Assembly (NCBI GenBank): GCA_045567855.1
Contig: JBJLCC010000037.1
Coordinates: 34,625 to 98,624, forward strand
Direction of reading: 5' to 3'
Length of the DNA: 64,000 nt
Origin: Candidatus Poseidoniales archaeon
Lineage (GTDB): Archaea > Thermoplasmatota > Poseidoniia > MGIII > CG-Epi1
The notes beneath the pieces are model-generated. The model ran no database searches. It was not told where the DNA came from and was given only the letters and a program-made list of their open reading frames with translations. Positions 1-57,995 of this stretch are shown piece by piece (the first letter of the stretch is position 1; each line of letters starts with the position of its first letter). The position numbers and the translations under genes were made by a program.

Positions 1-2623
1 TTTATTAATTTCATTTTCATTAACATAAGCCTTAATCACGAATTCATGATAATTCGCAGTGGATACCCATTCAAATGTGAAACTTTCACTTTTCTCAGGT
101 TCTATACTGAAAGAAGAAGTATGAACTAATTCCGAATCAATATAAAGTTCATAGTATCCAATTGCAATATGGCCATTGTAGTTATTTGTATTGTTGTATG
201 TTTCATTGTAATTCTTCAATACAGTCTTAATCTCATGTTTAGTTCCTCTTTCTTTTGATCCACTTATTTCTATTTCATTGATGAATATATCTGCCCAGCC
301 AGTGATATCAACGCTACTACTACTTTCGTTACGGTTTCCATTTTCATCAATTAACGAATATTCTAAAATTATTACGCCTGCATACTCCATTTCAAATATT
401 AAATTAAAGTTAGATCCTTGATCTACGTAATCAAATTCAGCCCTTTGATTTTCTTTATTATCTATGATTTTAATTTTAAGGTATTCGATATTTGCCTCAC
501 TTTCAACATCAAATGCATTTAAGTATATTTCAAAATCTTCACCAACACGAGGAGCGGAAGGGGCAGTTTGCAGAATGCCCGTGGGCTTAGAGTTAAGATA
601 GATTTCATGTTCGTAATAGGCCGTGCCAACTGGGGTTTGCTGAACGGTCAAATTCATGAGATGGTAACCCCCTGAGCTGATGTATGTGGAGATAATTTCA
701 TTATTGCTGTCTAAAATTTCGCCATCTAGCGTCCAAATGTAGTTTAATCCCAGTCCAGTGGACTGACTTCCATTAAAATCAACCCATGTTCCTTCATTTA
801 TTTGATTATTAAATTCAAAATAAGCAGTAGGTTTGTCGTAAACAGTAATGTCTAGTTCAAATTTATTTGTCCACAAATTACTTTCTGAATCTCTTCCAGT
901 GGCAATCAATTTGTAATTACCTTTTTCATTGAAGGCGATAGTTTTGGACAAATTAATAGTTGATTCATCATTAAGTAATAACAAATTAGATGAATTTATT
1001 TGATATACTTTCCAATTATAGAGGTTAATTTCTCCAAGAGTAGAAACAATTATTTCAGCATCTTGATTAACAACAAGATTGATTTCTTCATAATTTAAGG
1101 AGATTATAGGTAAATTTGTTCCAGACAGAATAAATGTTTCAGTTGTATTTCCTCCTCGCGGATCACTTACAGTTAATTCAATATTATGATTTCCTTCCAC
1201 AAACGATAAATCTAGATATTGTCCATAGGAAATGCTTGAATCATAATTCCATTGATATGTGAGTACTGTATTATCGTTGTCTGTTGATGCACCTGCATCG
1301 ATTCGTATTTCTCTATTTGTAGGTATTATCCATTGATTAGTCCCGGTCAAGAGCCCTTCATCAATATTGATATCAGGATTTGGGGGTGAATTTTTAACAT
1401 ATATCATTATAGTTGATTCGCTTACTCCATTTTGATCATCAGTCAGCCTTAAAGTTATGTTATAGTAACCAGGAAATGAAAAATAATGAGTAGGGTTTAT
1501 TTCATTTGATGTGGTTCCATCTCCAAAATTCCACAGCCATTCCTCAATTTCCCCGTCCGAATCTGTAGAACTATCTGTAAATTCAAATGGCGTTAAGGTG
1601 TTTCCACTGCCTGGTGCAATTGTGAAGACTACATTAGGTAGTGAATTGATAACTTCTATAGTGTAATATGTAGTGCTTATATCATTTAGATTATCAGTTA
1701 ATTTTAGAGAAACATCAAAGATTCCTGAATCTGTATATGTATGCTCCTTAACCATCTGATTAGAAGTTCTTCCATCATCAAAATTCCAGTAATAAAAGTC
1801 AATTTCCCCGTCCAAGTCATAAGAATCTGTTGCGTCAAATGTTATGCTCTCACCAAGCATAATTGTCATGCTTGAGATGCTTACACTAGCAATTGGTGCC
1901 TTGTTGACGAATATATTGAGAATATAGGTGTCTTCCAGTCCATGATTATCTCTTACAGTTAGCGTTACATTGTATTCACCGTTTTCAGTAAATACGTGTA
2001 CTGGGTTGTCAGTATAGTTGTATTTTCCGTCTCCAAAGTCCCATGTGTAGTTTACTATCTGGCCGTCTTCATCCCTTGATTCGTTTCCGTAGAATTGCAA
2101 GGCCTCTCCTTCAGTTACTACTGCTTCATCAGCGTCTGCGTTGGCAATGTGGTTTTGAGAGAAAGCTGATGTCCAGACTATAATATTTAATCGCCATCTG
2201 ACTTCAATATTCTCTATTTTCCATCCAGATTCAGTTATCCGTTGTATGCTAAAGAGTTTGGGTATGTGTCTTTAGCTAAAATGATCCCTGCTCTGTAAGG
2301 GTCTCCGCTGTCCCCTCTGTTTGTCTCCAGAGTCCAAGTCATCATTCGCCATCAGCTTCCTCCAAATCCATTCCTTTATGCTCTTCATCGTTGTTAACTG
2401 TGTTTGAGCTCCATTTCGAAAGCATTATTTCTTCGTCGATGTGCCAGATTAAGAGCCCTTCTCCAGGGAGATAAGTATCATATTTTGTTTGCTGCCGATT
2501 TTCTAGTAGGAAATATTGCTCCTGAGGCAGTCCAGTTGCCCAGGTATCGGTAGTTTGTAAATATTTACCACCTTCCGATACCGGTTCGATGACAAGATTT
2601 GCGATATCGTCATCTTCGCACTG
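1..2623 (-). pseudogene. C-terminal continuation of the M6 protease in shifted frames: M6-like LLIWHIDEE and NRGDSGDPY motifs followed by at least 5 PKD (WxFGDG) domains; runs off the window start; disrupted by at least 3 frameshifts (or sequencing indels)
   Basis: Frame B (2623 down to stop at 2342-2344) reads ..YFLLENRQQTKYDTYLPGEGLLIWHIDEEIMLSKW..DEEHKGMDLEEADGE*; frame C (2351 down to 2235) reads ETNRGDSGDPYRAGII..; frame D (2271 down to 1) is one open frame with WDFGDG/WNFDDG/WNFGDG PKD repeats. Confidence 0.7.
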
Positions 2624-7012: not shown

Positions 7013-10000
7013 CTAAAGTGGAGAGTCTCCAATCAATCCACAATGTGGGCACATGACTTCGCTTTCATCCCCAGCAAGATTCTCAAATTCCTTTTGACAT
7101 CCTCCCTCACAAACGAAAACTACGGTACGAGAGAATTGGCTTCCTTGAAGGACACTAAATGAAGGCTTTTCTTCAATAACAGAGTCTATCTCTTCCTTGG
7201 CTAGAATCTCGACCGGAACTAATATACTCGAGTTTTCAACATCAATAGGAACTTCTTCAACTTTATTCTTGAAGATATACGCACCTGAAGCAACGGCAGT
7301 TAAGATTAGCAATACTGCAACAATCATGTAGTTATCTATCTGAGTTGAATCTTTGTTACCGCTAGCTGCACTGTTAATGTTTTCATATTCTACAAATATT
7401 TCAAGCATCTCACCTTCCATATTGGCATTTAGGTACCCCATTCGATCTACTGAAATTATTCGGTAATAGTGGAAGCCTCCGCTCAAATTATAAATTTCAT
7501 AACTCATTTTAGTTTTCGTAAACTGAATATTTTCAATAGTCTCCCAAGGCCGAGAAAAATTATTTCTACTCTCGATAATATATGATATGGCGTCTTCAGC
7601 CTCAATCCATTTAATAGTTAAATTATTTTGCCCAGTAATTTCATACTCGACAGATTGAACTGGCATCGGTAACCTATTATCTATGGTTGTAGCTAAATCA
7701 TATCCTGAATAGGATATAGAAATAGATGAGTTTTCAGGTGGAAGGTATCCTATATCGCCATTTCCAAAAACTAGCTTTCCAAATTCATAATCTATCCAAT
7801 ATTGATTTGCTTTCATACCTGATAAATCATTTCCATTGTATTCTTGTAAAACTTTATCGTAAATTCCGTTTCGGTTTTCGTCAACTATAATCTCAACGTT
7901 CTTTAGCTTTCCTGTCATCACAGGTTTTAATGGAATTGTTGGTAGTTCAATTTCATTGGTCATATTTTCATAGTCAAATATAAATTCAAATTCTTCTCGT
8001 GAATATTCATTACCTGCGTAATCGATTGGTTTAATTCTGAAATAGTATGTGTATCCATCAACTAGATTTCTAATTGTGTAATCATCATTAATCCATTCCT
8101 CATCAAATGGTTTCCATTCTAGTATATCTTCATTGTTCTCATTAAGCCTAGAATATTCTATTTCTAGTTCTGACAATTCTTCAGACTTATATTCAACAGA
8201 CAAGACTAAGTCATCTGTATTTCTTAATAAATCAATTTGGTTTAATTTAACTGAGGGCTTCACTCTGTCAAATGTGATAGTAACATCAGGTATTAGTTTG
8301 AGCTCTTTATTTCCAGAGTAATCGATACTTCTTGATCTAACTAAGTATGTCCCATCCGCTCCCGGATTAAACCAATATTCTCCTATTCCAGTAAAGAGGC
8401 CATAGCTTGACCATTCAGTATCATTGATTTCTTTGTATTCTATAACGTACGCAGATATGTCAAATGTCCCATTTTCTTTCCAGTTAAGAGTAACACCATT
8501 AAGATTTGTATATTGTAAATTCCCTTCACTAAGCCACAATTCAGATCTAGGTAAATCCATGTCAATTCTAACTTCGGTGTCATATACTCCTTTGAATTCT
8601 TTGTTTCCGTTAATATCTACCCCTATTGTACGGAATCGGTATATCATTCCATTTTCTACAGAAAAATTAGTTGAGAATATATTTGTATAATAGTCGTAAA
8701 GTATCCAATCACCTATCGAGCTTCCGTCTTTAATTTGATAATATAAGTAAAACCCCACAAGATCACCTTCATTTGATATTTCTTTCCATGTTAATGGTAT
8801 TATTGTAGAATTTTTGTAAAAACCATTTTCGTCAACTTTTGTTATTGGAGCAGTAGTATCCAGCATAATTGGAATCTTATAAGTGGCATCTTTGTAATTC
8901 CACAAATTTGCTTGTGGAAAGGTTACAAAAATTTCTTGATCAAACCACTGTGTGTTTTGAGGATTACCTACAACGCTGGCGATGACGTTTTCACCCTGCA
9001 GTAGATAGTTAGTGAAAATTTGCACTTCGTCATTCCAATATTCAGCTCCATGTCCACTCCCTTCGTCTAAATCTCCAAAAACAAATATTCCATTAATGTA
9101 ATGATCTCCATAGTTGTTACTTGCAACATTAATGTTCATAACACCATTTTCATAAATTCCGAGATTTGTTATGTTAAAGACATGTCTGAAATAGGCATAA
9201 TTATCATCATCCCACTCAGTTTTGTAATTTACACCCTCAATTGAGCTGTCACCAAATGGAGAGTAAGCACTTGCCCAATCGGTATCATTAAATGACGATG
9301 TGGTCCAGTTTGTATTTCCATAAAGTTCTTCATAGTCACTTGATTCTATCCACTTCCATGTGACATCAGCATCTCTTCCGCTGTTAAGGAGGTTTTGTTG
9401 AACAGTATAATCATGTTCAGTATTTACTGTGAAAGAAAGATTATGGTACCCATCTTCAATTGATGAAGGTAATACCGCATTAATAGTTACATCTATAGAT
9501 TCTCCTGGCTGAAGTATAAACTCATTTGGAGTAAATGTTATTTGTGAATTTATTTCTCCAGATGAGGGAATCAAAGTAACATTATCAGTAATCCCTCCAT
9601 TATTTGTAATTGTAATAATTTTTGTTAGTATTCTGGTTTGATTAATATGCTCAAGATTCTCGTCAATTTCCGTTTTCAGGCGATATATCTTTGCACTAAC
9701 GTTCAAGTGTAAGTCATTATTTGATAAAATGGTATCGTTGCAGTTACAAGTAATGTTTATGTTAAGTGTATTTTCACCGATATATTTGGGGGTCCAAGTA
9801 AAAAATATTAAATCTTCATATTCTTGAGGCATACTCGAGAAAGACACTAAGCTAATATTCGTTTCGTTAGTGTATGATCTTATATTTACATCGTTAGAAA
9901 TCTCATCACCATTATTTCCTCCATTAACTGCAACTGTAATAGTATCTCCAAAAATTATAGATTCATTAGTTGGTTCAAAAACGCTAGCAGTTATTTGTAA

Positions 10001-10633
10001 GTCGAGCCATTGTCTATTCTGGTTTCCGCTACCCCAAACGTAATCTCTTCCATAAACTGCAAGAACATTCTGCCCTCTCAAAAAGTCTTCAGGTTCGATT
10101 GAACTGGTTCCGTCATCATTCCAATAATCAGCTCCGTGGGAATTTCCGCCAGATTCTTCGTAGATTAAATTACCATTAATGTAAGGTGTACAATAATTTG
10201 CAAAAGCCACATTAATCTCAGCTTCAGTTACTATACCATTAAGTTGAAACTTGTGACGGATTAAAATAATATCATCATTATAAGGCGAGCTTCCCGACGT
10301 GTCCCAATCTGTATTTGGATCTACATTATTGTCACTTCTATCTCCAAATGGTGCAGCTCCGAAGACCCATGACGTGTCATTGAAATCAGGTTTTGACCAA
10401 TTCAATGGAGCCTCTGAATAATCATCAATAATCAAATATTTGTAATATGTTGCGTTATCTCTTCCACTTTGGACAATGGTCAAGCTTTCAGCATTATCTT
10501 TAGAATACATCACTTCATTAATATACGGTTCTTGTTGAGCTCCAGAAGTAGGCATAAATGCAATGGTAATTAAGGTCAAAATCACCAAAATCATCATTAA
10601 AGCATATGATTTCACGATATTAAAATTGTACAT
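7013..10633 (-). CDS. giant cell-surface protein: signal peptide, duplicated ~200-aa beta-rich module, FN3-like domains, many N-x-S/T sequons, C-terminal TM anchor plus cytoplasmic Zn-ribbon tail
   Basis: 1206-aa ORF; N-terminal hydrophobic signal; two homologous segments (NWSKPDFNDTSWVFGAAPFGD../SGGNSHGADYWND and NWTTSSFNDTDWASAYSPFGD../SGHGAEYWND); TM MIVAVLLILTAVASGAYIF; tail CEGGCQ..(18)..CPHCG. Confidence 0.8.
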   Translation of the reverse strand: MYNFNIVKSYALMMILVILTLITIAFMPTSGAQQEPYINEVMYSKDNAESLTIVQSGRDNATYYKYLIIDDYSEAPLNWSKPDFNDTSWVFGAAPFGDRSDNNVDPNTDWDTSGSSPYNDDIILIRHKFQLNGIVTEAEINVAFANYCTPYINGNLIYEESGGNSHGADYWNDDGTSSIEPEDFLRGQNVLAVYGRDYVWGSGNQNRQWLDLQITASVFEPTNESIIFGDTITVAVNGGNNGDEISNDVNIRSYTNETNISLVSFSSMPQEYEDLIFFTWTPKYIGENTLNINITCNCNDTILSNNDLHLNVSAKIYRLKTEIDENLEHINQTRILTKIITITNNGGITDNVTLIPSSGEINSQITFTPNEFILQPGESIDVTINAVLPSSIEDGYHNLSFTVNTEHDYTVQQNLLNSGRDADVTWKWIESSDYEELYGNTNWTTSSFNDTDWASAYSPFGDSSIEGVNYKTEWDDDNYAYFRHVFNITNLGIYENGVMNINVASNNYGDHYINGIFVFGDLDEGSGHGAEYWNDEVQIFTNYLLQGENVIASVVGNPQNTQWFDQEIFVTFPQANLWNYKDATYKIPIMLDTTAPITKVDENGFYKNSTIIPLTWKEISNEGDLVGFYLYYQIKDGSSIGDWILYDYYTNIFSTNFSVENGMIYRFRTIGVDINGNKEFKGVYDTEVRIDMDLPRSELWLSEGNLQYTNLNGVTLNWKENGTFDISAYVIEYKEINDTEWSSYGLFTGIGEYWFNPGADGTYLVRSRSIDYSGNKELKLIPDVTITFDRVKPSVKLNQIDLLRNTDDLVLSVEYKSEELSELEIEYSRLNENNEDILEWKPFDEEWINDDYTIRNLVDGYTYYFRIKPIDYAGNEYSREEFEFIFDYENMTNEIELPTIPLKPVMTGKLKNVEIIVDENRNGIYDKVLQEYNGNDLSGMKANQYWIDYEFGKLVFGNGDIGYLPPENSSISISYSGYDLATTIDNRLPMPVQSVEYEITGQNNLTIKWIEAEDAISYIIESRNNFSRPWETIENIQFTKTKMSYEIYNLSGGFHYYRIISVDRMGYLNANMEGEMLEIFVEYENINSAASGNKDSTQIDNYMIVAVLLILTAVASGAYIFKNKVEEVPIDVENSSILVPVEILAKEEIDSVIEEKPSFSVLQGSQFSRTVVFVCEGGCQKEFENLAGDESEVMCPHCGLIGDSPL

Positions 10634-23243: not shown

Positions 23244-26200
23244 CTAGAATAAGCTTAGACTATCTGAATTGGCCATTCTATCTAGAGTTTCAGTAACTAG
23301 TGAAGTAGGGCCAAGCACTTCTTTAGCATGTAAAAACATGCATCTTATTTCATTTCTTTCCAGACCTTCAAGTGATGGCATAATGTTAGATCTAATAACT
23401 CTGTCCAAAGCCAGTTCAGGTCCATATTTTTTAATTGAATTAAATATAGTGACCATCGAATCAATTAATAATGCAGGTCCAATTTTTCTAAATGTACGTA
23501 CTCCGAGTGGAGCTTCATCGCCACGTTTTGGTGGTTCACTTGGTTTCAAAAAGTTTACTAATTTTTCATGGCAAGCATACATGCTTCCATCTTCATCATA
23601 GAAGTCAAACTTCTTTTGAGGGAAGTGGCGACAAGTTTCTCCAAATTTCCACAAGCCATCGCCTTCGGGCCTGTCAGGCACTAAACCTAATTTCTTTAGT
23701 TTGAAATAAACAAAAACAGGCATACGATTGTATTCATCTTCAGGTAGTGGCAAACCTATTTCAACGAAAGCAAAACGCCTCATTAGAGCGAAACCAACGT
23801 TAAACAAGGTATTCTTATCTTGAGTATTCATTGTTCCAATAATTCTAAATTCTGGAGGCATCATGAACGGAGCGCCCCCGGTTTCTTTATGAGTTAGTAA
23901 CGGTTGTTTATCTCGATATTCAAAAACTGTAAATAATTTACCAAACGCTTCATCAATATTAGCTCTGTTAAACTCATCAATTACTAAGTAGTGGGGCCTA
24001 CCTCTTTCACGGATTGATTTTTCACATAATTTGGCAGCTTCTGCGACATATCCATCTTTGAAGTAATATCCTCCAGAATCATCGGGTGAAATACCGCCAA
24101 TAACGTCGAAATTCGACCATTCGGCATTAGCTGTAACGATAGTGTAATTTGGTGCCATACTTCCGTTTGGCTGCTTTATTTCTCCACATAATTTGGTTAA
24201 CAAAATATTGGATAAAGCAGTCTTACCAGTCCCTGGTTCTCCGAATAGCATAATATTCTTACCTGAAGTTAAATGAGTAATAACTTCGTCCACAGTCTCT
24301 TGCGTTGTTGAATATGCCTCAGCTATTTCATGGAAATCAACCTCATAATCCACTTCTATTGCTTGTCTTATTTCAACAGATTGATCTACAGTATCCATCA
24401 TTGTCTTTTCAACTAACTCAAGATCCGGTGTATGTTCAGTAGTGTGTTTAAGTTCGACTTGAAATTCGTCTCCATATTCATTCATTAAAAATTCCATAGC
24501 TGAGTCTACAGTCCATTCGGGCATCACTTTTTGTTCACCTGGAACAGATGGTGCAAAAGGATCTTGTCGGTTTGGCATAGCTGCATCACTAGCAATAGAT
24601 AATTCACGCAGTTTTTGAGAACCAAATTTGTAGCTTAGCCAAAATCCTACAGCAGTAACCAATGCAGATAATAACAGATTAAACTGTGCTTCACCATCAT
24701 CAGGCCATTCGATATCATTTCCACCTAAGACTACTGGAGCGATGAAAGTTCCAAATAGTGCGAATATTCCAGAGGCAAATATTACGAAGTAAGCAACTCC
24801 CATTGAACCAGATTCTCCTCTTCGTTTTCGATAAAAGGAGACCATTCCGACAGTTGCCACTCCTAGGGCCATTACAGTCAGGGTTGTATCATTTTCATCA
24901 AATACTAATGCACCTTCGTCACTGGTTACAACATTGAAAACTAGAATTGCAAATTGTAAGCCCAGACCGGATAGAATCATTGAGAAGTATTTAGCCTCAT
25001 CAATATCATTAATTTTAGTATTTGATATCAACCAATTTGCAACGCCCAAGAAAAGAAGCGTTGCAGAAAGTAATACCATCATATTACTTCCATTTCCTAA
25101 GTCAAGGGCAACAATTTCTAAATTTTGATACCCTATTTGTTGACATTGTGAAATATCTTCTTCAGCAACATTATTATCTATCAAATTTTGGAGGTAAGAT
25201 TGTGGTAATTGTGTGTTACATATAGTGTAAGGGCCTAAAGAGTAATTGTAGAAAACAGAGGAGAATAAAGATGCGGCAGCGAGTATGAAAATGTAGAATG
25301 TCAAGCTAGGAGGGTCACTTAGTGATCTTCCTAAAGACGTTCGTATTAGTAAAACACTTCCTGAAACAATTAGACCTATAGTGCAAACAAAACCGATAGT
25401 TAGAGGAAGAGCAAATATTACATTGTTGAGCAACCCGCCATATATTGCAAATAGAATAGTTTCGAATATTGCGAATCCCAAAATAGGAAGTACAATTGAT
25501 GTGTTTGGTATTTTATTGTAAATGTAGAACGCCGTCGTAATAAGTAGCAAATTTAAAAGCATAAAAGAGAAAGTACTTATAAATTTCATATCTACAGGAC
25601 ACCCAAATCTCTCGTCGTCGTCTACTTGACGACTTTCGTCTCTGTCTGTAAGTAAAATATCGAAGCCTTGTTCATCAGATTTTACAAAATCGATGTACCT
25701 CTGGCTATCCCATATTTCACAGTTGAACGGCTCCCCAGAAAATGGTTCAGAGGTACCTCTTCCAATAAGCGTACTATTGCCATCTGGTGTTGGTTTGTTG
25801 TAAGGGTCTGATGGCATATATCCATCTAATGATTCTTGAGAAGTAGTAGGGACAGAAGACACTGCAAGGCCAATAACTCCAGATAATAGTAAAATTGAAA
25901 TTACAACTATAGTCAAAGGAGCAATATAGTTAATCTCACCTTTAGACAAGAAAATTCTGTCGAGCTTTTTGCTAATATCTGCAAAGAAAGTTCCTAATTG
26001 GGGAATATTATCAATAAATTTAGATAATGCATTGTCGGTTTTTTCATCGGTCGGATTTGTTTCTGTAGCATTCAAAGTTTCTTCAAGCAGCCTTTCTTCT
26101 TCACTTAATTCTTTTACATCTTCAGAGCCTTTCTCATCAGTTGGTAAACCATCTAATTTCATACCTGCGATATCTTCAGAGATATCGCCTGAATCCTTAG

Positions 26201-26321: not shown

Positions 26322-26391
26322 TCACAGACTACTCCATTAAAATGTTATCTCATGATTTTAAGCATGACTGACTTGAGAGAAAATCAAAAAC

Positions 26392-26399
26392 TTTAAATA
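26392..26399 (+). promoter_or_regulatory. TATA-like box ~25 nt upstream of the 26424 ATG (probably leaderless transcript)
   Basis: TTTAAATA in the divergent intergenic region 26322-26423. Confidence 0.3.
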
Positions 26400-26423
26400 G
26401 GAGGTCTGGTAAAATCAACTCCT

Positions 26424-28796
26424 ATGAAAGAGCAATTACAACAGATACAAGCCGTAGCAGTTGTTACTTTTCTTTGTATTTTAATTTCTGTAAATAGTAC
26501 TGGTGACTACGGGAAATGGTTTGTGATTGATGGTGCTCGTGAAACCGTAGATCCAGAAACTGGCAATGTTACACAATACAATACTTTCCAGTACCATTAT
26601 TATTTGGATTCATATTTACTTACAGATACTACAGGAAACAGTGAATCAGTACCATATGATAGTCAAGATTGCGTTTATTGTCTAAATAAGGTTTCTTCAT
26701 CTGATAACGCGAAAATGACTGCGTATGCAGCAGGACTGTTGGCATTAGTAGTGGCTTACATGGCCAATAATGCAGTTAGTAGTCTTCATCAAAATACACT
26801 TAGAAGTGCACTTAAAAATTTAAAATATTTTGCGATTATAGTACTTATAGTTGGATTTTTGTCTACTTTTTTATTTTACACTACTTGGTCTGAATCGCTC
26901 ATACAAGATGAGGTAGCTCTTACTTCAACAAATGCAGAAGGCTCAGATAGTAACAAAGAATTAGGGTGTATCAAAAATTTACTTACTTTCTTCGGTGAAG
27001 GGACTTGTGAGGAGTATGTTCAATTACAAGCCGGTGAAGCAGATAGAGTAACAGGAAGACTGGGTCCAGTTTCTTGGAGTCCAGGCATTGGATTTTTTAT
27101 TGTTTTGATAGGAACTGCACTTACTGGTGGTGGAACGCTTTACATCTTAGGTAATCTGGACGAAGAATGGCAAGCAATATTGAAAAAACAAGAATTAATA
27201 GAGAGGCAACAGCAAATTCATGACGGCGAATTAGAAAAGAGTAAAGAATTAATGCAAGAGTTTGATGATACCGAAGAAAGATTGAAAGAAGCTGAAAAAA
27301 GAATTGAAGATGTACGAGCTTCTACTAATGACATTGATTATGACGGTATTGAGGATTTGGAGAATGAGCTTGACAGAATAACAGCATTAAATCAAAGTGT
27401 TAATACGCTAAATAATTCTTTAGAGTCGAAATTGAAAACTGCTCGAATTGCTACCTCAGAAGTTGAGAAGAGAGCTAGAATGGCTGAAAAAGAGTTGCAG
27501 GATGACCTTTCAGCAAAAAACAACTTAGAAAAAGAGATAGAGGACTTGAGAACTAAACATGAAAACGATATGCGTCTTAGTGATAGGATGACTAGGGAAA
27601 TTGGGTCTCTAAGGACAATGAGTGATGAAGCAGAGACTAAAGCCGTTGATGCTGAGAGAAAGTTAAAATTAGAAAAACCAGATACAGTTAATGCTTTGGA
27701 ATCTTATGATTCAGTCAAGGCCTCTTATGATAAAACTGTCGGAGAGAAGAATAATTTAGAGAAAGAGATCATGGAATTGGAGCAACATACTTTGGAAGCT
27801 AATGAAAGGGAAAAATCAGCTCTTGCAGAAAGAAACGAGGCAATAAACAGAAGAAAAGAATTGGATAGAGAGGTAAAATTAATGGAAAAGAATAAAAAAA
27901 GAATTAATGATAAGTTTACTACATTAACTACAAATTTGGAAAAGGCTAAGAAAGAGCTCAATGATGCTCGAGAAAAAGCATCTCTTACTATGAACGAGCT
28001 TGATATTGAAAGACAAACTATTATTGAGCTTGAGCAGAATAGTGAGCAATTCAGACAAAAAGAGAATGAAATTCTTGGTATGACTGACTCACTTAAAGAA
28101 TTGCAGGAACAAGTGGATAGTCAAAGAGATTCAAATAAGAAAATCGAGGATGAATTGAAGATTGAGGTAAAAAGTAAGGAAAAGACACAAAAAGATTTGA
28201 CTGCTTTGGAGAATGCATCACAACAAGTAAGTAAAGTAATGCAGACACTCAAGAAACAATTTGAGGATGCAAAAGCTGAATTAAATATTAGCATTGATGA
28301 TCGCAACAAAGCCGAAAGAGTACTTGAAGCTGAAAAAACAGAACATGAGAAGCTAAAAGAGGATCTAGAGTTTCTACAGGGAACTACTATAGGTAGTGAA
28401 GAAGGAACTGAACGTAAAATTAAGGCTATGGAAGTAGAGATTCCAAAAGAAAAAGAGTTAGCTGGTGAAATGAATGCGGAGGCGCAAAAGCTTTCGGATA
28501 GTAATAAGGAGTTAGAAGAAAAAATTAAGGAAGCGCGTATTGAAAGTTTAAGTAAGCCTGAAAATACAACAGATGTAAATAATGCGACCGGAGCTTCGAT
28601 TGGTACTAGCCTTATAGTAAAGAATTTGACAAAAGAAACTGAACATACTTTTGAATTGGTTAATGCAGAAGATGCAAATATTCCGCAAGGTAAAATACCT
28701 TTGTCAAACCCAATAGGTAAGTCTCTTGAGGGTTCAAAAGAAGGCGATGAAGTTAAAGTGGGACCAACGACATTCAAAGTTCTCAAAGTAAATTAA
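26424..28796 (+). CDS. membrane-anchored giant coiled-coil protein with C-terminal GreA/GreB-like (FKBP-fold) domain
   Basis: 4 predicted TM in the first 240 aa; ~450 aa heptad-rich Glu/Lys sequence; C-terminus TFELVNAEDANIPQGKIPLSNPIGKSLEGSKEGDEVKVGPTTFKVLKV aligns with GreA [46 protein letters not shown]. Confidence 0.8.
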   Translation: MKEQLQQIQAVAVVTFLCILISVNSTGDYGKWFVIDGARETVDPETGNVTQYNTFQYHYYLDSYLLTDTTGNSESVPYDSQDCVYCLNKVSSSDNAKMTAYAAGLLALVVAYMANNAVSSLHQNTLRSALKNLKYFAIIVLIVGFLSTFLFYTTWSESLIQDEVALTSTNAEGSDSNKELGCIKNLLTFFGEGTCEEYVQLQAGEADRVTGRLGPVSWSPGIGFFIVLIGTALTGGGTLYILGNLDEEWQAILKKQELIERQQQIHDGELEKSKELMQEFDDTEERLKEAEKRIEDVRASTNDIDYDGIEDLENELDRITALNQSVNTLNNSLESKLKTARIATSEVEKRARMAEKELQDDLSAKNNLEKEIEDLRTKHENDMRLSDRMTREIGSLRTMSDEAETKAVDAERKLKLEKPDTVNALESYDSVKASYDKTVGEKNNLEKEIMELEQHTLEANEREKSALAERNEAINRRKELDREVKLMEKNKKRINDKFTTLTTNLEKAKKELNDAREKASLTMNELDIERQTIIELEQNSEQFRQKENEILGMTDSLKELQEQVDSQRDSNKKIEDELKIEVKSKEKTQKDLTALENASQQVSKVMQTLKKQFEDAKAELNISIDDRNKAERVLEAEKTEHEKLKEDLEFLQGTTIGSEEGTERKIKAMEVEIPKEKELAGEMNAEAQKLSDSNKELEEKIKEARIESLSKPENTTDVNNATGASIGTSLIVKNLTKETEHTFELVNAEDANIPQGKIPLSNPIGKSLEGSKEGDEVKVGPTTFKVLKVN

Positions 28797-28831: not shown

Positions 28832-30535
28832 ATGAACCATACCTTACCAAAAGATAGTAGCCAAATGATGGACTGGTCTTGGGATAAATATATTCCTTTT
28901 TTTGATTTTTTAGAAAACTCAGGTTTAACTACAAAAAACATCTCCGACTGGATGAAGTATTGGTCCGACTTATCGGAGCTTATAGGTGAAGTTGGAACTT
29001 CGGTATATGTTTCTACTACTGTGGACACTACTGATGAAGAAGCTAAGGTTAGGTACCATAGATTTCTTGAAGATATTAGTGAGAATGTAAGTTCTAGAAA
29101 TCAAATTTTAAAAATTAAATTTTTAGAGTCCAAATTGTCTCCTGATAATTTTGAAATTCCTCTGAGAGGAATGAAAAGCGAGGTTGAGTTATTTTCAACA
29201 GATAATCTTCCTCTTTTGACTTCCGATGCGAAACTATCCAAAGAATATGATGCAATTATAGGTTCCCAAACTGTAAATTGGGAGGATGAAGAGGTCACAC
29301 TTACTCGCTTATCGCCAGTCATGTTAGAAACAAATAGAAATAAGCGTGAGAACGCTTGGAAATTAGCTTCTGCCAGGCGACTTGAAGATAGAAGCGAAAT
29401 AAACGAAATCTGGAAGAAAATTCTTAAGATTCGCATGTCTATTGCAGATAATTCCGGTTATGATGACTATCGAGCCTGGAGATGGGAATATCTTAAAAGA
29501 TTCGATTATACTCCCGATGATTGCTTAATATTTCACGAATCGATTGAGAAGATTATTGTGCCTTTAGCCAATAAATTACTTCAAAAGCGGAAGGAAGCAC
29601 TTGGTCTCGAAAAACTAAAACCATGGGATTTAAGTGTAGATATATTTGGAAGAGATGCTTTAGTTCCTTTTGAGGAAGCTAGTGAATTAGAGGAAAAATG
29701 TCATAATATATTTAGTTCAGTTGATTCTGATTTGGGTAATCATTTTGGAATTATGAGAGAGAAGGGCTTATTAGATTTAGGCAATCGTAAAGGTAAGGCT
29801 CCTGGGGGTTACTGTACTGAATATCCATACCAGCGTCTACCTTTCATTTTTATGAACGCAGTTGGGACACATAGTGATGTTCAGACAATGATTCATGAGG
29901 GCGGGCATGCATTCCATGTATTTGAATCTGCAGATTTACCATACACTAGTCAGAGAGACGTTGGGATGGAATTTGCTGAGGTGGCTTCAATGGCTATGGA
30001 GCTTCTAGCCTCTCCTTTTTTGACTGAGAATGTTGGCGGTTTTTATTCTGAAGAGGAATCTGCAAGGGCAAGAATTGAACATTTGGAAAAAGTTATTATG
30101 TTTTGGCCGTATATGGCAGTTGTAGATGCATTTCAGCATTGGGCCTATACAAATCCTGCAGAGGCGTTGGATCCAAATAACTGTGATGAAGAATGGACTA
30201 AACTTTGGAAAAGATTCCAAATGTCTGATCACATAGATTACACAGGATGTGAAGACATAATAGCTACAGGTTGGCATAATAAATTACATATTTATCATGT
30301 TCCATTCTACTATGTTGAATATGGAATGGCTCAGCTAGGTGCAATACAAATATGGGGCAATTCGTTAAGTGATGAAAAGAAAGCCATTCAAAATTATAAA
30401 TCTGCTTTGGGTCTTGGTGGTAATGCAACACTTCCTGAGTTATATGAAGCTGCAGGCGTTAAATTTAGCTTTGACGATAAGACTCTAGAGTACGCAGCTA
30501 GTTTAATAGAGAAACAAATTAAGGAATTATCATGA
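28832..30535 (+). CDS. pepF: oligoendopeptidase F (M3B)
   Basis: HEGGHAFH zinc motif, 567 aa. Confidence 0.85.
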   Translation: MNHTLPKDSSQMMDWSWDKYIPFFDFLENSGLTTKNISDWMKYWSDLSELIGEVGTSVYVSTTVDTTDEEAKVRYHRFLEDISENVSSRNQILKIKFLESKLSPDNFEIPLRGMKSEVELFSTDNLPLLTSDAKLSKEYDAIIGSQTVNWEDEEVTLTRLSPVMLETNRNKRENAWKLASARRLEDRSEINEIWKKILKIRMSIADNSGYDDYRAWRWEYLKRFDYTPDDCLIFHESIEKIIVPLANKLLQKRKEALGLEKLKPWDLSVDIFGRDALVPFEEASELEEKCHNIFSSVDSDLGNHFGIMREKGLLDLGNRKGKAPGGYCTEYPYQRLPFIFMNAVGTHSDVQTMIHEGGHAFHVFESADLPYTSQRDVGMEFAEVASMAMELLASPFLTENVGGFYSEEESARARIEHLEKVIMFWPYMAVVDAFQHWAYTNPAEALDPNNCDEEWTKLWKRFQMSDHIDYTGCEDIIATGWHNKLHIYHVPFYYVEYGMAQLGAIQIWGNSLSDEKKAIQNYKSALGLGGNATLPELYEAAGVKFSFDDKTLEYAASLIEKQIKELS

Positions 30536-45694: not shown

Positions 45695-48364
45695 TTAGTT
45701 ACGTGATGGTTCAGGTGCGTCTGGATTCACATTCAGATTTTTCAAAGCTTTTTCAGCTTTGCTTTTACTTATTTTTCCTTCCCGTAGAAGTGAACTTATT
45801 GCAGCGGCAGCAATATATTGATCATCGATTTCAAAATATTTCCTCAAATTTTCTCTAGTATCGCTTCTTCCAAAACCATCAGTTCCAAGTGTTGTATATT
45901 TTCCAGGAATCCAACTTCTTATCATGTCCGGCACTGCTTTCATGTGGTCAGTAGCTGCAACAGTAGTCATTTCCTTGTTGTTCATAATTTTACTTATGTA
46001 AGGTATTTTAGCCTTTTTCATTGGATTTAAATTATTCCATCTTTCACATTCAATTGCTTCTCTTCGGAGACCTCCAAAACTTGTAGCACTCCATACATCA
46101 CAATTTATTCCTAAATCGTTCAATATTTTCTCAGCTTTCAAAACTTGCATCATAATAGGTCCACTTCCTATCAGCCTTACTTGTGCCCTTGAAGAGCCCT
46201 TAAATTTGTATATTCCTTTCAAAACACCTTCTTCACAATTTTTTGGGATAGCTGGCATCTGGTAATTCTCATTGTAGAGTGTTAAATAGTAAAAAATATC
46301 TTCATTATTATCATACATTCTTCTTAGACCTTCTTTAACTATTATTCCAATCTCGTAAGCGAATGCTGCGTCATATGACAGACAGTTGGGAACTGTGGTG
46401 GATGTTAGAAGACTGTGTCCATCTTGATGCTGAAGTCCCTCACCATTTAGCGTCGTCCTTCCTGCCGTAGCTCCCAATAAAAATCCTTTAGCTCTAGAAT
46501 CTGCAGCACACCATATTTGATCACCAACTCTTTGAAATCCAAACATTGAGTAGTAAATGTAGAATGGTATAGTAGGTTTACCTACTGTTGAATAAGCCAT
46601 ACCTGCGGCAGTAAAGCTACTCATTGCACCAGCTTCAGATATTCCTTCTTCCAAAATTTGGCCGCTTTCAGATTCTTTATAGCTCAATAGTAATTCCGAA
46701 TCAACGGGAGTGTAAATTTGGCCTTGTGCATTGTATATTTTGAATTCTGTAAACAAAGCTTCCATTCCAAATGTTCTGGCCTCGTCAGGTACTATTGGAA
46801 CTATCAGGTTCCCAATCTTGTCATCTTTCATAAGGTTTCTAAGTAACCTTACAAATGCCATCGTGGTAGAAACCTCTTGTTCTTTTGGCGTTCCCTTATC
46901 AAATTCAGTAAAAGCGCTATCTTTCGGCATATGAAATCCACTGTATGTACTTTTTCTTGTTGGTAAATATCCGCCTAGTGCGTTCCGCCTATTTCTGAGG
47001 TATTTAATTTCTTCACTGTCAGAAGATGGTTTGTAGTAAGGCATTTCTTCAAGTTCAGAGTCTGTAAATGGTATCTCTAACAAATCTCTAAAATATGCCC
47101 AGTCAGACTTTTCCAGTGATTTCTTTTGATGTGTCATGTTACGCGCTTCAAATCCTTCCCCCAGAGCCCAACCTTTCACGGTTTTAGCCAAAATTACTGA
47201 AGGCTGTCCAATGTGTTTTGTAGCTTCATTATAAGCTGAGTATAGTTTGACTGAATCGTGGCCTCCTCTTCTTAATTTAGTTAGTGCTTTATCGTCTAAA
47301 TGTTTAACTAAGTTTCTTAAGTCTTCCTCTGGCCCAAAGAATTTTTCTCTTATGTAATCTCCAGTAGATGCGGCTAAATTTTGATAATCTCCATCTACAG
47401 TACTTTCCATTTTGCGCAGTAAATGTCCCATGTCATCTTTCTGCAACAGTTCATCCCAGTCTCTACCCCATAGAACTTTAAGTACATTCCAGCCCGAACC
47501 TCTAAAGATTGCCTCAAGCTCTTGAACAATTTTCCCATTTCCCCTTACGGGACCATCTAATCTTTGTAGGTTACAATTGATTACAAAAGTCAAATTATCT
47601 AATTTCTCTCTGTGAGCTAAATGTAACGCATGTAATGTTTCCGGTTCATCACACTCACCATCACCTAAGAAAGCCCATACTCTACTTTTAGAGGTGTCGG
47701 CAATTCCCCTCTCTTGTAAATAGCGGAGAAATCTTGCATGGTAAATAGCATTTGTAGGTCCAAGGCCCATTGAGACCGTAGGAAATTCCCAAAAGTCAGG
47801 CATCAATCTTGGATGAGGATAACTAGATAATCCCTCAGAAAAGGCTTCTCTTCTAAAGTGATTAAGTTGTGCATTTGTTAGTCTTCCCTCTAAAAAAGCT
47901 CTAGAATATATTCCTGGTGATGAATGGCCTTGATAGTAAATGAAATCTCCAATTCCATTTTCTTTTCCCTTAAAAAAGTGGTTAAATCCTACCTCATACA
48001 AACTTGCGGCAGATGCATACGTAGAGATGTGGCCTCCAAGCCCAGCAAAATTTTTATTGGCTTTTGAAACCATCATTGCTGCGTTCCATCTGATAATTCT
48101 TCTTATTTTCTTCTCAATAGCTTCATCACCAGGATATTCTGATTCGGATTCAGGAGGTATAGTATTAACATATGGACTATTTGTTAACAAAGGTATTGAG
48201 ATATTTCTCGTTCTAGCCTCTCTTATTAATGTTTGTAAAAGATATCTTGCTCTTTCCTCACCTTTGAGGTCAATTATTGCGGCAATGGACTCTACCCATT
48301 CTTCAGTTTCCTGTGGGTCTCTATCCGGTAACTGTTGCCGATATCCTTTTTCCATTATTGTCAC
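45695..48364 (-). CDS. aceE: pyruvate dehydrogenase E1 component, homodimeric bacterial type
   Basis: 889 aa; N-terminus DPQETEEWVESIAAI..ERARYLL parallels E. coli AceE; TPP-binding GDG motif. Confidence 0.85.
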   Translation of the reverse strand: MTIMEKGYRQQLPDRDPQETEEWVESIAAIIDLKGEERARYLLQTLIREARTRNISIPLLTNSPYVNTIPPESESEYPGDEAIEKKIRRIIRWNAAMMVSKANKNFAGLGGHISTYASAASLYEVGFNHFFKGKENGIGDFIYYQGHSSPGIYSRAFLEGRLTNAQLNHFRREAFSEGLSSYPHPRLMPDFWEFPTVSMGLGPTNAIYHARFLRYLQERGIADTSKSRVWAFLGDGECDEPETLHALHLAHREKLDNLTFVINCNLQRLDGPVRGNGKIVQELEAIFRGSGWNVLKVLWGRDWDELLQKDDMGHLLRKMESTVDGDYQNLAASTGDYIREKFFGPEEDLRNLVKHLDDKALTKLRRGGHDSVKLYSAYNEATKHIGQPSVILAKTVKGWALGEGFEARNMTHQKKSLEKSDWAYFRDLLEIPFTDSELEEMPYYKPSSDSEEIKYLRNRRNALGGYLPTRKSTYSGFHMPKDSAFTEFDKGTPKEQEVSTTMAFVRLLRNLMKDDKIGNLIVPIVPDEARTFGMEALFTEFKIYNAQGQIYTPVDSELLLSYKESESGQILEEGISEAGAMSSFTAAGMAYSTVGKPTIPFYIYYSMFGFQRVGDQIWCAADSRAKGFLLGATAGRTTLNGEGLQHQDGHSLLTSTTVPNCLSYDAAFAYEIGIIVKEGLRRMYDNNEDIFYYLTLYNENYQMPAIPKNCEEGVLKGIYKFKGSSRAQVRLIGSGPIMMQVLKAEKILNDLGINCDVWSATSFGGLRREAIECERWNNLNPMKKAKIPYISKIMNNKEMTTVAATDHMKAVPDMIRSWIPGKYTTLGTDGFGRSDTRENLRKYFEIDDQYIAAAAISSLLREGKISKSKAEKALKNLNVNPDAPEPSRN

Positions 48365-53536: not shown

Positions 53537-54973
53537 CTAATCAAAACTCTCTGCAATCCATTTTGACTCTATTTTTTTATAAAATGCAAGGCTCAGTAGT
53601 GATAAAATTCCGCAGATAAGAGATAGTGCCACAAGGATGGTGGAGGGTCTATGATTAATTGCTAAGCTTAGTATTGTCATTGCAATCATAGGTGGAACAG
53701 ATACCAGGAAGAATTTGATGAAAACAAAAGCATCAAAAAGAGCAGAATTAGTTTTTAATCCAGTAGACATAGCTGTGTAATTTACTATGTAAATTCCAAC
53801 AGTTATCATTACTATCAATCCGATTGGAAGCAAACTTAATTCATTACTCATGTAGGAAATAAGTGTCATAAAAATTAGTGGAATCCACCAAGTGATAGTT
53901 CCAAATAAAAATAGCCTTGCTCTTATTATATCGGAGACTGTTATTGGCAGAGTTGAATAAAACTGTGGAGTATCAATTGAATTTAACCAAGAATAAAGCA
54001 TTGTGCCAAAAAACCCTATCATTACTCCATAAAATATGGTATTAAAATCAATCTGTATCGGCAATCCTCTATCCAAAAACCAGTTCATGAATGTCAGGAA
54101 TCCAAGAGGAAATAGGAATGAAAAAAACATTTTTGTTCCAGTTTTACTTCTTTCCAAATCTATTCTTTCCTTTGCAATAATTCCAGGTATGCCTATTTCT
54201 TTTGCCCAATTATATTTTTGAGTGTATTCTTTGAATCTATTCTTGTATCCTATTATGCTTATGCTGGTAGTATTTTTGTATTCTTTAATATTCATGGTAG
54301 CAACTAGTGATAAAATAATGGGAATTGCTGCACCTAAGAGTAATAGATTTATTTGCCGATTCAAATACCATTCCAGACTTCCTGTTATTTCATAATTGTA
54401 GAATATTACGGAGTAGCTGATGATGAAGATTATGGCAGATGAAATGCCTTGTATTAGCGAAATTCTGTAAAAACTCGATATATAATAGGAGAAAGATATT
54501 CCTGTACAAAATGAAAAATATAAAGTAAGGCTAAATGCCAATAGATTTGTTAGACTTATATCTGTGTAAATAGTCCCAATAATTGCACCTACCAAAGCAG
54601 GTAACATTGTAAATAAGGTATAAAATATAATTTCCTTGCAAAAATATAATAAAGTAATTTTTTTTTGGGTTATAGGCTGTGTAGTTGAGAGCCCCAGTAT
54701 TAATCCGAAGTATCCAAATATTCTTTCAAGAAATTCGTTTCCAAAGAAAGCTAGAGAGCCTGCAAAAAGGCCATAAAAGATTGCTGAAATATGCAGTATT
54801 TGTAAATAATCACGATATCCCATATCTTCTATCATCACGTCTGAAAATAATATAGCTAATAATCCAGAAATCATTACTAATATTGGAAAAGAAAAGAATC
54901 CTTTGCCACTAGCAAAACTAGTGTTTAGGCGAATTTCCTCTTGAAGCATTCTCATCAAAATTAGTCTATTCAT
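53537..54973 (-). CDS. ABC-2 type exporter permease (multi-TM)
   Basis: 478 aa, many TM helices; start overlaps the ATPase stop. Confidence 0.6.
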   Translation of the reverse strand: MNRLILMRMLQEEIRLNTSFASGKGFFSFPILVMISGLLAILFSDVMIEDMGYRDYLQILHISAIFYGLFAGSLAFFGNEFLERIFGYFGLILGLSTTQPITQKKITLLYFCKEIIFYTLFTMLPALVGAIIGTIYTDISLTNLLAFSLTLYFSFCTGISFSYYISSFYRISLIQGISSAIIFIISYSVIFYNYEITGSLEWYLNRQINLLLLGAAIPIILSLVATMNIKEYKNTTSISIIGYKNRFKEYTQKYNWAKEIGIPGIIAKERIDLERSKTGTKMFFSFLFPLGFLTFMNWFLDRGLPIQIDFNTIFYGVMIGFFGTMLYSWLNSIDTPQFYSTLPITVSDIIRARLFLFGTITWWIPLIFMTLISYMSNELSLLPIGLIVMITVGIYIVNYTAMSTGLKTNSALFDAFVFIKFFLVSVPPMIAMTILSLAINHRPSTILVALSLICGILSLLSLAFYKKIESKWIAESFD

Positions 54974-57919: not shown

Positions 57920-57995
57920 TGGTGGTCCCGCCCAGATTTGAACTGGAGTCTATACCACCCCAAGGTACAAGGATGCCAAGCTACCCCACGGGACC
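57920..57995 (-). tRNA. tRNA-Pro (anticodon GGG favoured; TGG alternative), encoded CCA
   Basis: acceptor GGTCCCG/CGGGACC, anticodon arm GTACC-TTGGGGT-GGTAT, T arm TCCAG-TTCAAAT-CTGGG, ACCA end. Confidence 0.75.

Follow-up and report, generated by a model that had tools for sequence, protein, structure and literature searches.

The Gre-headed gene and its product

We analysed a stretch of 64,000 nucleotides (hereafter, the window) from contig JBJLCC010000037.1 of a Candidatus Poseidoniales archaeon (assembly GCA_045567855.1; positions 34,625 to 98,624 of the forward strand). An earlier note, made from the sequence alone, had pointed to a gene in this window that appeared to join a bacterial GreA/GreB C-terminal domain to a membrane-anchored coiled coil. 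The open reading frame (ORF) that it delimited is present as described, on the forward strand and with an ATG start, and encodes a protein of 790 amino acids (aa), hereafter called the Gre-headed protein. A second gene, encoding an McrB-like nucleoside triphosphatase (NTPase), lies on the opposite strand, and the two genes are separated by a short shared intergenic region. The features of both genes are listed in Table 1.

Table 1. Positions of the features of the Gre-headed gene, its divergent partner gene and their products (window coordinates; TM, transmembrane helix)
Feature	Residues	Positions	Strand	Evidence or remarks
Whole gene: claudin-like anchor, coiled-coil stalk and Gre-derived head	790 aa	26424..28796	+	ORF listing, ATG start
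N-terminal membrane domain	1-243	26424..27152	+	Four TM helices, two outside loops
TM1	10-27
Outside loop 1	28-97			Four beta-strands; W32, F33, C82, C85
TM2	98-118
Inside basic loop	119-133
TM3	134-155
Outside loop 2	157-220			Two strands; invariant C182, C195, W218, P220
TM4	221-243			Holds invariant GGGT motif
Cytoplasmic coiled-coil stalk	244-655	27153..28388	+	Composition, heptad register
Conserved stalk core	300-450	27321..27773	+	Conservation over 96 sequences
Invariant DMxLSDRMTREIxSLRxM motif	382-399	27567-27620	+	Invariant columns
K418-P419	418-419	27675-27680	+	Invariant columns
Break, then terminal helix	656-658, 659-710	28389..28553	+	AlphaFold single helix 659-710, pLDDT 78-90
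Possible vestige of GreA N-terminal helix 1 and tip region	669-688	28428-28487	+	BLASTP, hhalign
Flexible linker	711-728	28554..28607	+	pLDDT <50 at aa 711-721; length and sequence differ within the family
Gre-factor C-terminal (FKBP-like) domain	729-790	28608..28793	+	PF01272, NCBIfam GreA models, hhalign, Foldseek
Shared divergent intergenic region	102 bp	26322..26423		Read from sequence
TATA-like TTTAAATA		26392-26399	+	~28 nt 5' of the ATG at 26424
ATTTTAAT-type box		26337-26344	-	5' of the partner gene
McrB-like partner	1025 aa	23244..26321	-	Pfam AAA_5, NCBIfam McrB, topology
Partner McrB-type AAA+ NTPase domain	~674-856	23754-24302	-	Walker A, Walker B, NxxD

By sequence comparison, the last ~65 aa of the protein are a real GreA/GreB C-terminal domain (CTD). 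The Pfam model PF01272 (GreA_GreB; gathering score, 26.9 bits) matched aa 725-789 of the full protein with 37.8 bits (E=1.8e-9) and scored 43.3 bits (E=3.8e-11) when the C-terminal 100 aa were searched alone. Several GreA models of NCBIfam matched the same region, and an hhalign comparison of the CTD profile of the family with that of bacterial GreA gave a probability of 98.9% (E=1.5e-17). The alignment that had been drawn by eye, TFELVNAEDANIPQGKIPLSNPIGKSLEGSKEGDEVKVGPTTFKVLKV at aa 742-789, was reproduced by phmmer against Escherichia coli GreA (1grj). In an AlphaFold model of aa 601-790, the predicted local distance difference test score (pLDDT) is ~90 over the beta-domain, and the best 14 matches of this domain in a Foldseek search of the PDB were all chains of the Gre family (E=1e-6 to 6e-4), comprising GreA, GreB, Gfh1, a Nitrosomonas GreA/GreB-like protein and Rnk. 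Generic FKBPs appeared in the ranking only at E>0.08. Therefore, the domain is specifically of the Gre type and does not merely share the FKBP-like fold, and both the profile searches and the structure prediction uphold the alignment proposed in the earlier note.

The signature loop, which is the best-conserved loop of Gre CTDs, reads N762-P-I-G-K-S-L-E-G-S-K-E-G-D-E in the head and S-P-I-G-K-S-L-M-G-R-E-E-G-D-E in GreA. Across the family, it is kept almost unaltered (N762-P-I-G-K-x-L-x-G-x-K-E-G-D-E) despite divergence down to 33% identity, pointing to selection on a binding surface of the Gre type or on its scaffold. In the main clade, P759 and N762 align to S121 and S124 of E. coli GreA, respectively, and E769 occupies a position of the signature loop that is hydrophobic in Gre factors. 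Outside the family, the nearest relatives of the head are ordinary bacterial GreA proteins of 156-160 aa (31-36% identity), and the gene for one of them adjoins a bacterial nuo operon. These relationships are consistent with an origin of the head by capture of a bacterial greA.

In E. coli GreA, the acidic tip residues D41 and E44 of the N-terminal domain (NTD) coordinate the catalytic Mg2+ (PMC7527559) and are needed for Gre catalysis (PMC7527559; PMC4598747). Conservation of these residues, for which a check had been suggested, was not found in the Gre-headed protein. GreA_GreB_N (PF03449) gave no Pfam match at E<=1, the tip motif GDLxENAEY is not present, and, in the hhalign register, the positions of D41 and E44 are taken by A685 and Q688, neither of which is acidic. 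The pair also varies among the 96 full-length sequences: position 685 is Glu in 60, Ala in 30 and another residue in 6, and position 688 is Asp in 52, Glu in 26, Gln in 16 and Ser in 2. In the BLASTP alignment, a gap stands in place of the GDLxE segment. AlphaFold predicts the 52 residues of the terminal helix as continuous where GreA has its hairpin turn, and the heptad register runs unbroken through aa 647-689, spanning the tip-equivalent position. A hairpin at the position of the GreA tip is thus unsupported by either analysis. The break that precedes the helix sits in a conserved xGSEEDTERK motif, in which E659 is invariant. The lack of the tip motif, the A685/Q688 pair and its variability in the family together make transcript cleavage very unlikely, and we consider it near-certain, from both sequence and model, that the Gre-headed protein is not a cleavage factor. 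The name 'GreA/GreB family elongation factor', which the NCBI and JGI pipelines give to some members, is therefore probably misleading in functional terms.

A vestige of the Gre NTD is nevertheless plausible. A BLASTP alignment with a 156-aa GreA (36% identity) reaches GreA residues 7-149, and hhalign aligned aa 669-789 to GreA 19-148. In particular, an 18-residue stretch at aa 669-686, MEVEIPKEKELAGEMNAE, weakly resembles helix 1 of GreA, LQTELPKALELALEMGDL, at the correct spacing, so that the fusion may have begun from a whole GreA. However, BLASTP, phmmer and hhalign extend into the GreA NTD in three different registers, and the helical part alone aligned to the GreA NTD over only 18 columns in hhalign, with a marginal score (P=0.005, 7% probability). 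For these reasons, retention of a whole GreA, which had been considered, was downgraded to a possible vestige.

The helical region that carries the head (aa ~244-710) agrees with the coiled coil of ~450 aa claimed previously, about six times the length of the 75-aa GreA NTD. The stalk is rich in Glu (18%), Lys (12%) and Leu (10%), keeps a constant heptad register through long stretches and contains no internal repeats; aa 602-655 are helical in the AlphaFold model. A simple, fully extended coiled coil of this length would measure ~60 nm. P419 is the sole invariant proline, and thus helix breaker, in the whole helical region. Conservation within the protein peaks at the centre of the stalk: across the 96 sequences, it is 0.77-0.86 per 30-aa block in the core, versus 0.75-0.77 for the Gre CTD, and the DMxLSDRMTREIxSLRxM motif is identical between clades that share only 33% identity overall. 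Nothing similar to the core (aa 300-450) was found in Pfam or the PDB. Because a mere spacer would not be so conserved, the core is presumably a partner-binding site. All structure models were built as monomers from shallow alignments (13-26 sequences).

The N-terminal region bears out the proposed ~4 TM helices and Cys-containing extracytoplasmic loop, with four predicted TM helices, C82/C85 in the first outside loop and the invariant C182/C195 in the second. Both outside loops are acidic and carry conserved aromatic and Cys residues; the C82xxC85 pair is missing in the distant clade. Since the short loop at aa 119-133 is basic (positive-inside rule), the termini, the coiled coil and the Gre domain are predicted to be cytoplasmic. 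The AlphaFold model of the anchor (predicted template modelling score (pTM), 0.75) contains a six-stranded sheet formed from both outside loops, and the TM4 helix extends in it to aa 267. This model was matched by Foldseek to claudins -3, -4, -9 and -19, TARP gamma-5, DUOXA1 and a de novo designed claudin fold, with which it has in common a four-TM bundle bearing an extracellular beta-sheet built from extracellular loops 1 and 2 (ECL1 and ECL2). Judged by the model, the anchor therefore has a claudin/TARP-type fold rather than that of a generic four-TM bundle. No claudin/PMP22 model of Pfam matched it at E<=1, neither the anchor nor the stalk core showed sequence similarity to solved structures, and the likeness to claudins may have arisen by convergence. 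No description of prokaryotic claudin-like proteins was found in the searchable literature.

Host genome, distribution and the divergent partner

The archaeal origin of the window, as stated in the earlier note, is evident from its genes for TFB, the termination factor FttA/aCPSF1, ELP3, PAC2 and the thermosome and from its synteny with Marine Group III and other Poseidoniia. The window is collinear with long metagenomic contigs. Its nearest genomic matches (92-94% identity) are metagenome-assembled genomes (MAGs) named Marine Group III euryarchaeote CG-Epi1, Methanobacteriota, Thermoplasmatota or uncultured archaeon, and the remoter matches (60-68%) include MAGs of Poseidoniia/Poseidoniales and single-cell genomes of Marine Group III. 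The GC content near the Gre-headed gene (0.36) equals that of the remaining window. The full-length architecture was found in 109 protein clusters (32-93% identity), in all of which PF01272 is present, with full-length homologues of 787-818 aa, and in 28 archaeal species genomes of GTDB, single-cell genomes among them. An antisense ORF of 221 aa (28121-28786, minus strand), rich in Ser, Leu and Phe, lies inside the gene; it mirrors the Glu/Lys-rich coding strand and is almost certainly a shadow ORF.

We searched 1.84 billion representative proteins with a profile of aa 1-450. Besides fragments, only two full-length clusters were recovered, which correspond to the two clades of the family, together with three weak four-TM-only archaeal relatives, two of them with Zn ribbons; one further match was a spurious repeat protein. 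One four-TM-only relative is encoded on a contig that also carries Topo VI, PPS_PS and UPF0179, and is thus archaeal. The claudin-like module therefore exists alone in other archaea, whereas the stalk-plus-Gre fusion is, on the sequences searched, specific to this lineage. The fusion is conserved in Marine Group III, and its divergence pattern looks like that of a gene passed on vertically within these archaea and within a sister clade. The architecture had been thought undescribed, and indeed we found no paper describing it; likewise, no description of archaeal Gre-like proteins or of the McrB form of the partner was found in the searchable literature. The domain match itself is already in databases, and it is the interpretation and the system that are new.

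The partner begins with a Zn ribbon and an acidic disordered segment, which are followed by ~10 TM helices, with Cys residues in two outside loops, and by a cytoplasmic AAA+ domain. This domain has Walker A (GEPGTGKT), Walker B (DEFNRAN) and NxxD (as GTMNTQD) motifs, matches Pfam AAA_5 (E=3e-19) and scores 66 bits locally against the NCBIfam McrB model NF008457, under the equivalog cutoff of 637. On these sequence features, the partner is a membrane-embedded McrB-type AAA+ NTPase. Its true start is probably the methionine at residue 3, because tblastn alignments start at this residue and because of the TATA-like box upstream of the gene. We infer only that the two boxes in the intergenic region, each suitably spaced from the start codon of its gene, may be archaeal TATA boxes with leaderless transcripts. 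Some partner orthologues (five sequences) carry an insertion and reach 1137-1269 aa. Outside the family, the next-best matches of the partner are bacterial McrB proteins, over the NTPase domain only.

The partner gene, which the earlier note does not mention, is adjacent to the Gre-headed gene, on the opposite strand, in 29 of the 29 loci having upstream sequence, and its homologues have the same narrow distribution as the Gre-headed family. The pairing persists in the 33%-identity clade although the downstream gene there differs. In most Marine Group III loci, an M3-family oligopeptidase gene (28832-30535, plus strand, in the window) lies directly downstream of the Gre-headed gene; in the 33%-identity clade (three loci), it is either missing or has moved, and it is therefore probably not part of the module. 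The pair occupies a fixed syntenic position among housekeeping genes (TFB, ELP3, aminoacyl-tRNA synthetases and FttA). No McrC or nuclease gene was present in any locus examined, the partner being flanked by the Gre-like gene and by housekeeping genes, and no division or cytoskeletal genes are conserved beside the pair in these loci. The partner N-terminus has the Zn ribbon and ~10 TM helices in place of an McrB DNA-reader domain, and PADLOC returned nothing meaningful, only noise-level LmuB/IetA matches to coiled-coil or P-loop regions. A motif scan of the window and the fetched loci revealed no TFS or RNA polymerase (RNAP) genes, a result that says nothing on the whole genome.

Elsewhere in the window, an ORF of 889 aa (45695-48364, minus strand) matches Pfam PDH_E1_M and the transketolase N- and C-terminal domains. 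It looks like the bacterial homodimeric type of pyruvate dehydrogenase E1 and is likely another bacterial acquisition in this archaeal genome. Two further ORFs on the minus strand, 7013-10633 (1206 aa) and 53537-54973 (478 aa), have no Pfam match at E<=1e-5. At 57920-57995 (minus strand), ARAGORN calls a tRNA-Pro(GGG) for which the Rfam tRNA model is silent at its gathering score, and this tRNA may be atypical or divergent.

Candidate roles of the two-protein apparatus

It is near-certain that the Gre-headed protein consists of a stalk that is anchored in the membrane, faces the cytoplasm and bears a Gre-derived head without catalytic activity. As to its role, we tentatively favour, as far as the sequences suggest, a membrane machine of two proteins in which the non-catalytic head serves as a docking module, with RNAP as the leading target; a housekeeping role of this machine is the best reading. 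The Gre-headed protein and the McrB-like NTPase would form one membrane-embedded apparatus, because both have outside loops with Cys pairs and cytoplasmic soluble domains. The partner would make contact with the stalk at its centre, and the head would act at the end of a long tether without stimulating transcript cleavage. Its target would be the funnel/rim region of archaeal RNAP that is equivalent to the rim of the secondary channel. Gre factors bind RNAP through their CTD, which touches the rim helices of beta' (PMC4598747; PMC7527559), and RNAP is the likeliest single target because the helical-hairpin rim of its secondary channel represents the only known ligand class of the head domain. 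Taken by itself, and by analogy with Gre factors, the assignment of RNAP as the ligand is a doubtful though reasonable one. The protein could thereby tether or sequester RNAP, and with it the transcribed DNA, at the membrane, and the McrB-like NTPase could drive nucleotide-dependent remodelling or release. A precedent for the co-option of such an NTPase is PcdA of Staphylococcus aureus, a McrB-family protein that works with the coiled-coil protein DivIVA in division-plane selection.

Several points weigh against this interpretation. Bacterial secondary-channel factors are regarded as unrelated to those of archaea, and binding to archaeal RNAP is not known for any Gre factor (PMC4598747). In E. 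coli, specific RNAP binding seems to need the NTD as well as the CTD (PMC7527559), whereas the Gre NTD is at best vestigial in the 790-aa protein. In E. coli GreA, S121P reduces RNAP affinity and S124L abolishes antipause activity (PMC7527559), and the main clade has Pro at the very position of S121, as well as Glu in place of a hydrophobic residue in the signature loop. Conservation is also higher in the stalk centre than in the head, which may therefore not be the main functional part. Finally, neither the geometry nor the oligomeric state of the stalk is fixed by the AlphaFold model, the pTM of which is 0.36. We consider unlikely the more detailed scenario in which a bacterial greA was captured by a Marine Group III ancestor and became the head of a ~60-nm stalk anchored in the membrane, this head docks on the secondary-channel rim of archaeal RNAP and couples transcription or the nucleoid to the membrane, and a dedicated, membrane-embedded McrB-type GTPase loads, releases or remodels the tether.

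The most serious alternative, which we regard as possible but not probable, is that the Gre fold has been reused in a cytoskeletal, division or membrane-organising machine and has no connection with RNAP. Reuse of the fold and a docking module for RNAP were the two functional readings that the earlier note had put forward. The head would then bind the McrB-like ring, another helical hairpin or its own stalk, and the role would lie in cell shape, division-site selection, envelope organisation or chromosome positioning. PcdA and CTTNBP2 are examples of McrB-family proteins repurposed for FtsZ or microtubule biology, and proteins that organise division and the envelope typically have long coiled coils anchored in the membrane. 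A role facing the envelope is suggested by the claudin-like anchor and by the Cys residues in outside loops of both proteins. The higher conservation of the stalk centre, together with the altered residues P759 and N762 at sites important to E. coli GreA and with E769 in the signature loop, fits this alternative as well. However, the Gre signature loop remains almost intact through the 33%-identity divergence, the pair lacks conserved division or cytoskeletal neighbours, and Gre CTDs are known to bind RNAP only (PMC4598747; PMC7527559).

A McrBC-derived membrane system for defence or abortive infection, with the NTPase as motor and a Gre-like head that blocks or senses viral or host RNAP, appears improbable. 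The nearest outside relatives of the partner are indeed bacterial McrB restriction subunits, the McrB census includes many systems that are fused to coiled coils and predicted to target RNA, and the non-catalytic Gre homologues Gfh1 and Rv3788 inhibit RNAP (PMC4598747). Nevertheless, no locus has an McrC or nuclease gene, PADLOC gave no meaningful match, and the GC content is not anomalous. The fixed position among housekeeping genes and a divergence like that of vertical inheritance are unlike those of a mobile defence island.

Still less credible is a true membrane-localised Gre-type cleavage or anti-backtracking factor for archaeal RNAP, as the automated annotation implies. Apart from the PF01272 match and the pipeline names, this idea can draw on the Glu and Asp residues that many members have at the D41/E44-equivalent sites in the ungapped hhalign register, and on the invariant E659, which, in its conserved acidic break (GSEEDTE), could make a hairpin tip. 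However, the window protein itself has A685/Q688, approximately one-third of the family lacks the first acidic residue and one-fifth the second, GreA_GreB_N is not matched, the region is predicted as a continuous helix whose likeness to the GreA NTD is marginal, and the head is carried on a ~400-residue stalk fixed to the membrane. The last alternative, an artefact of assembly or gene calling in which a membrane/coiled-coil gene was joined to a bacterial greA fragment, would account for the bacterial GreA proteins being the nearest non-family relatives of the head, but its probability is negligible, because the full-length architecture repeats in 109 clusters, which derive from independent samples and assemblers, in 28 species genomes, some of them from single cells, and in the 33%-identity clade, and because the reading frame is unbroken with even composition.

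Gre factors are regarded as a bacterial invention unrelated to the TFS/TFIIS proteins of archaea and eukaryotes. A conserved Gre-derived domain in abundant ocean archaea would thus clearly exemplify the capture of a protein domain across domains of life and the later loss of its catalytic function, and the label 'GreA/GreB family elongation factor' should not serve to infer Gre-type proofreading in archaea. If the head recognises RNAP as we favour, docking at the secondary-channel rim would be open to proteins in different domains of life, and the protein would be the first Gre-type factor on an archaeal/eukaryotic-type RNAP and a new device for coupling membrane and transcription in archaea, for which next to nothing is known of how transcription is organised in space. 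A head that does not bind RNAP would be the first known use of the Gre fold on anything else. The anchor, if its predicted fold is correct, would be the first claudin-fold anchor described in a prokaryote. In either case, the pairing of these modules with a McrB-like NTPase makes a two-protein apparatus without a described counterpart, and the whole may be a new kind of system.

Comparison with known systems

The head is homologous to the CTD of GreA/GreB (PF03449 + PF01272) in sequence (36% identity to a 156-aa GreA) and in predicted fold; both share the signature loop SPIGKxLxGxxEGDE, and in both a helix enters the domain via a linker. However, GreA and GreB are bacterial proteins of ~160 aa, in contrast to the 790-aa, membrane-anchored archaeal protein, which lacks the N-terminal hairpin (by Pfam) and the D41/E44 tip motif and in which the last beta-hairpin of the CTD is shortened by a deletion of four residues. 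Gfh1, Rv3788 and Rnk, which rank 3-9 among the Foldseek structural matches, likewise have a Gre-type CTD without transcript cleavage. In Rnk, the shortened coiled coil cannot reach the active site, and the protein still binds RNAP (PMC4598747). All three are small, soluble bacterial proteins without a membrane anchor, long stalk or NTPase partner. Gfh1 and Rv3788 retain the acidic tip residues, unlike the window protein, and the Rnk model NF004396 scores only 13.8-17.5 bits (cutoff, 109), the CTD fold being all that Rnk and the window protein have in common.

Long bacterial GreA fusions (NF011309/PRK14720, ~906 aa) likewise place the Gre module at the extreme C-terminus but, unlike the Gre-headed protein, keep a complete GreA. 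NF011309 aligns to the head at model positions 809-886, weakly (21 bits versus a cutoff of 714) and over the Gre domain only, and the N-terminal parts of these fusions are unrelated to the Gre-headed protein. The resemblance to SMC/Rad50 is restricted to weak matches in coiled-coil regions (SMC_prok_B, 34.8 bits against a cutoff of 567; Rad50, 19 bits), and the 790-aa protein contains no ATPase motifs of an SMC/Rad50-type head domain.

The partner shares the McrB-type Walker A, Walker B and NxxD motifs and the McrB model matches with the McrB family, including S. aureus PcdA. It differs in its fusion to ~10 TM helices and a Zn ribbon, in the absence of McrC and of a DNA-reader domain, and in being paired with a Gre-headed coiled-coil protein, a form not described in the McrB census. 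The anchor, finally, resembles the eukaryotic claudin/PMP22/TARP/MP20 proteins in predicted fold, with only 8-16% identity to its fold matches and no similarity at the sequence level. The W-GLW-C-C signature of claudins in ECL1 is missing, whereas W32-F33 and C82xxC85 are present, and the archaeal anchor is set apart from the claudin superfamily by its fusion to a cytoplasmic stalk.

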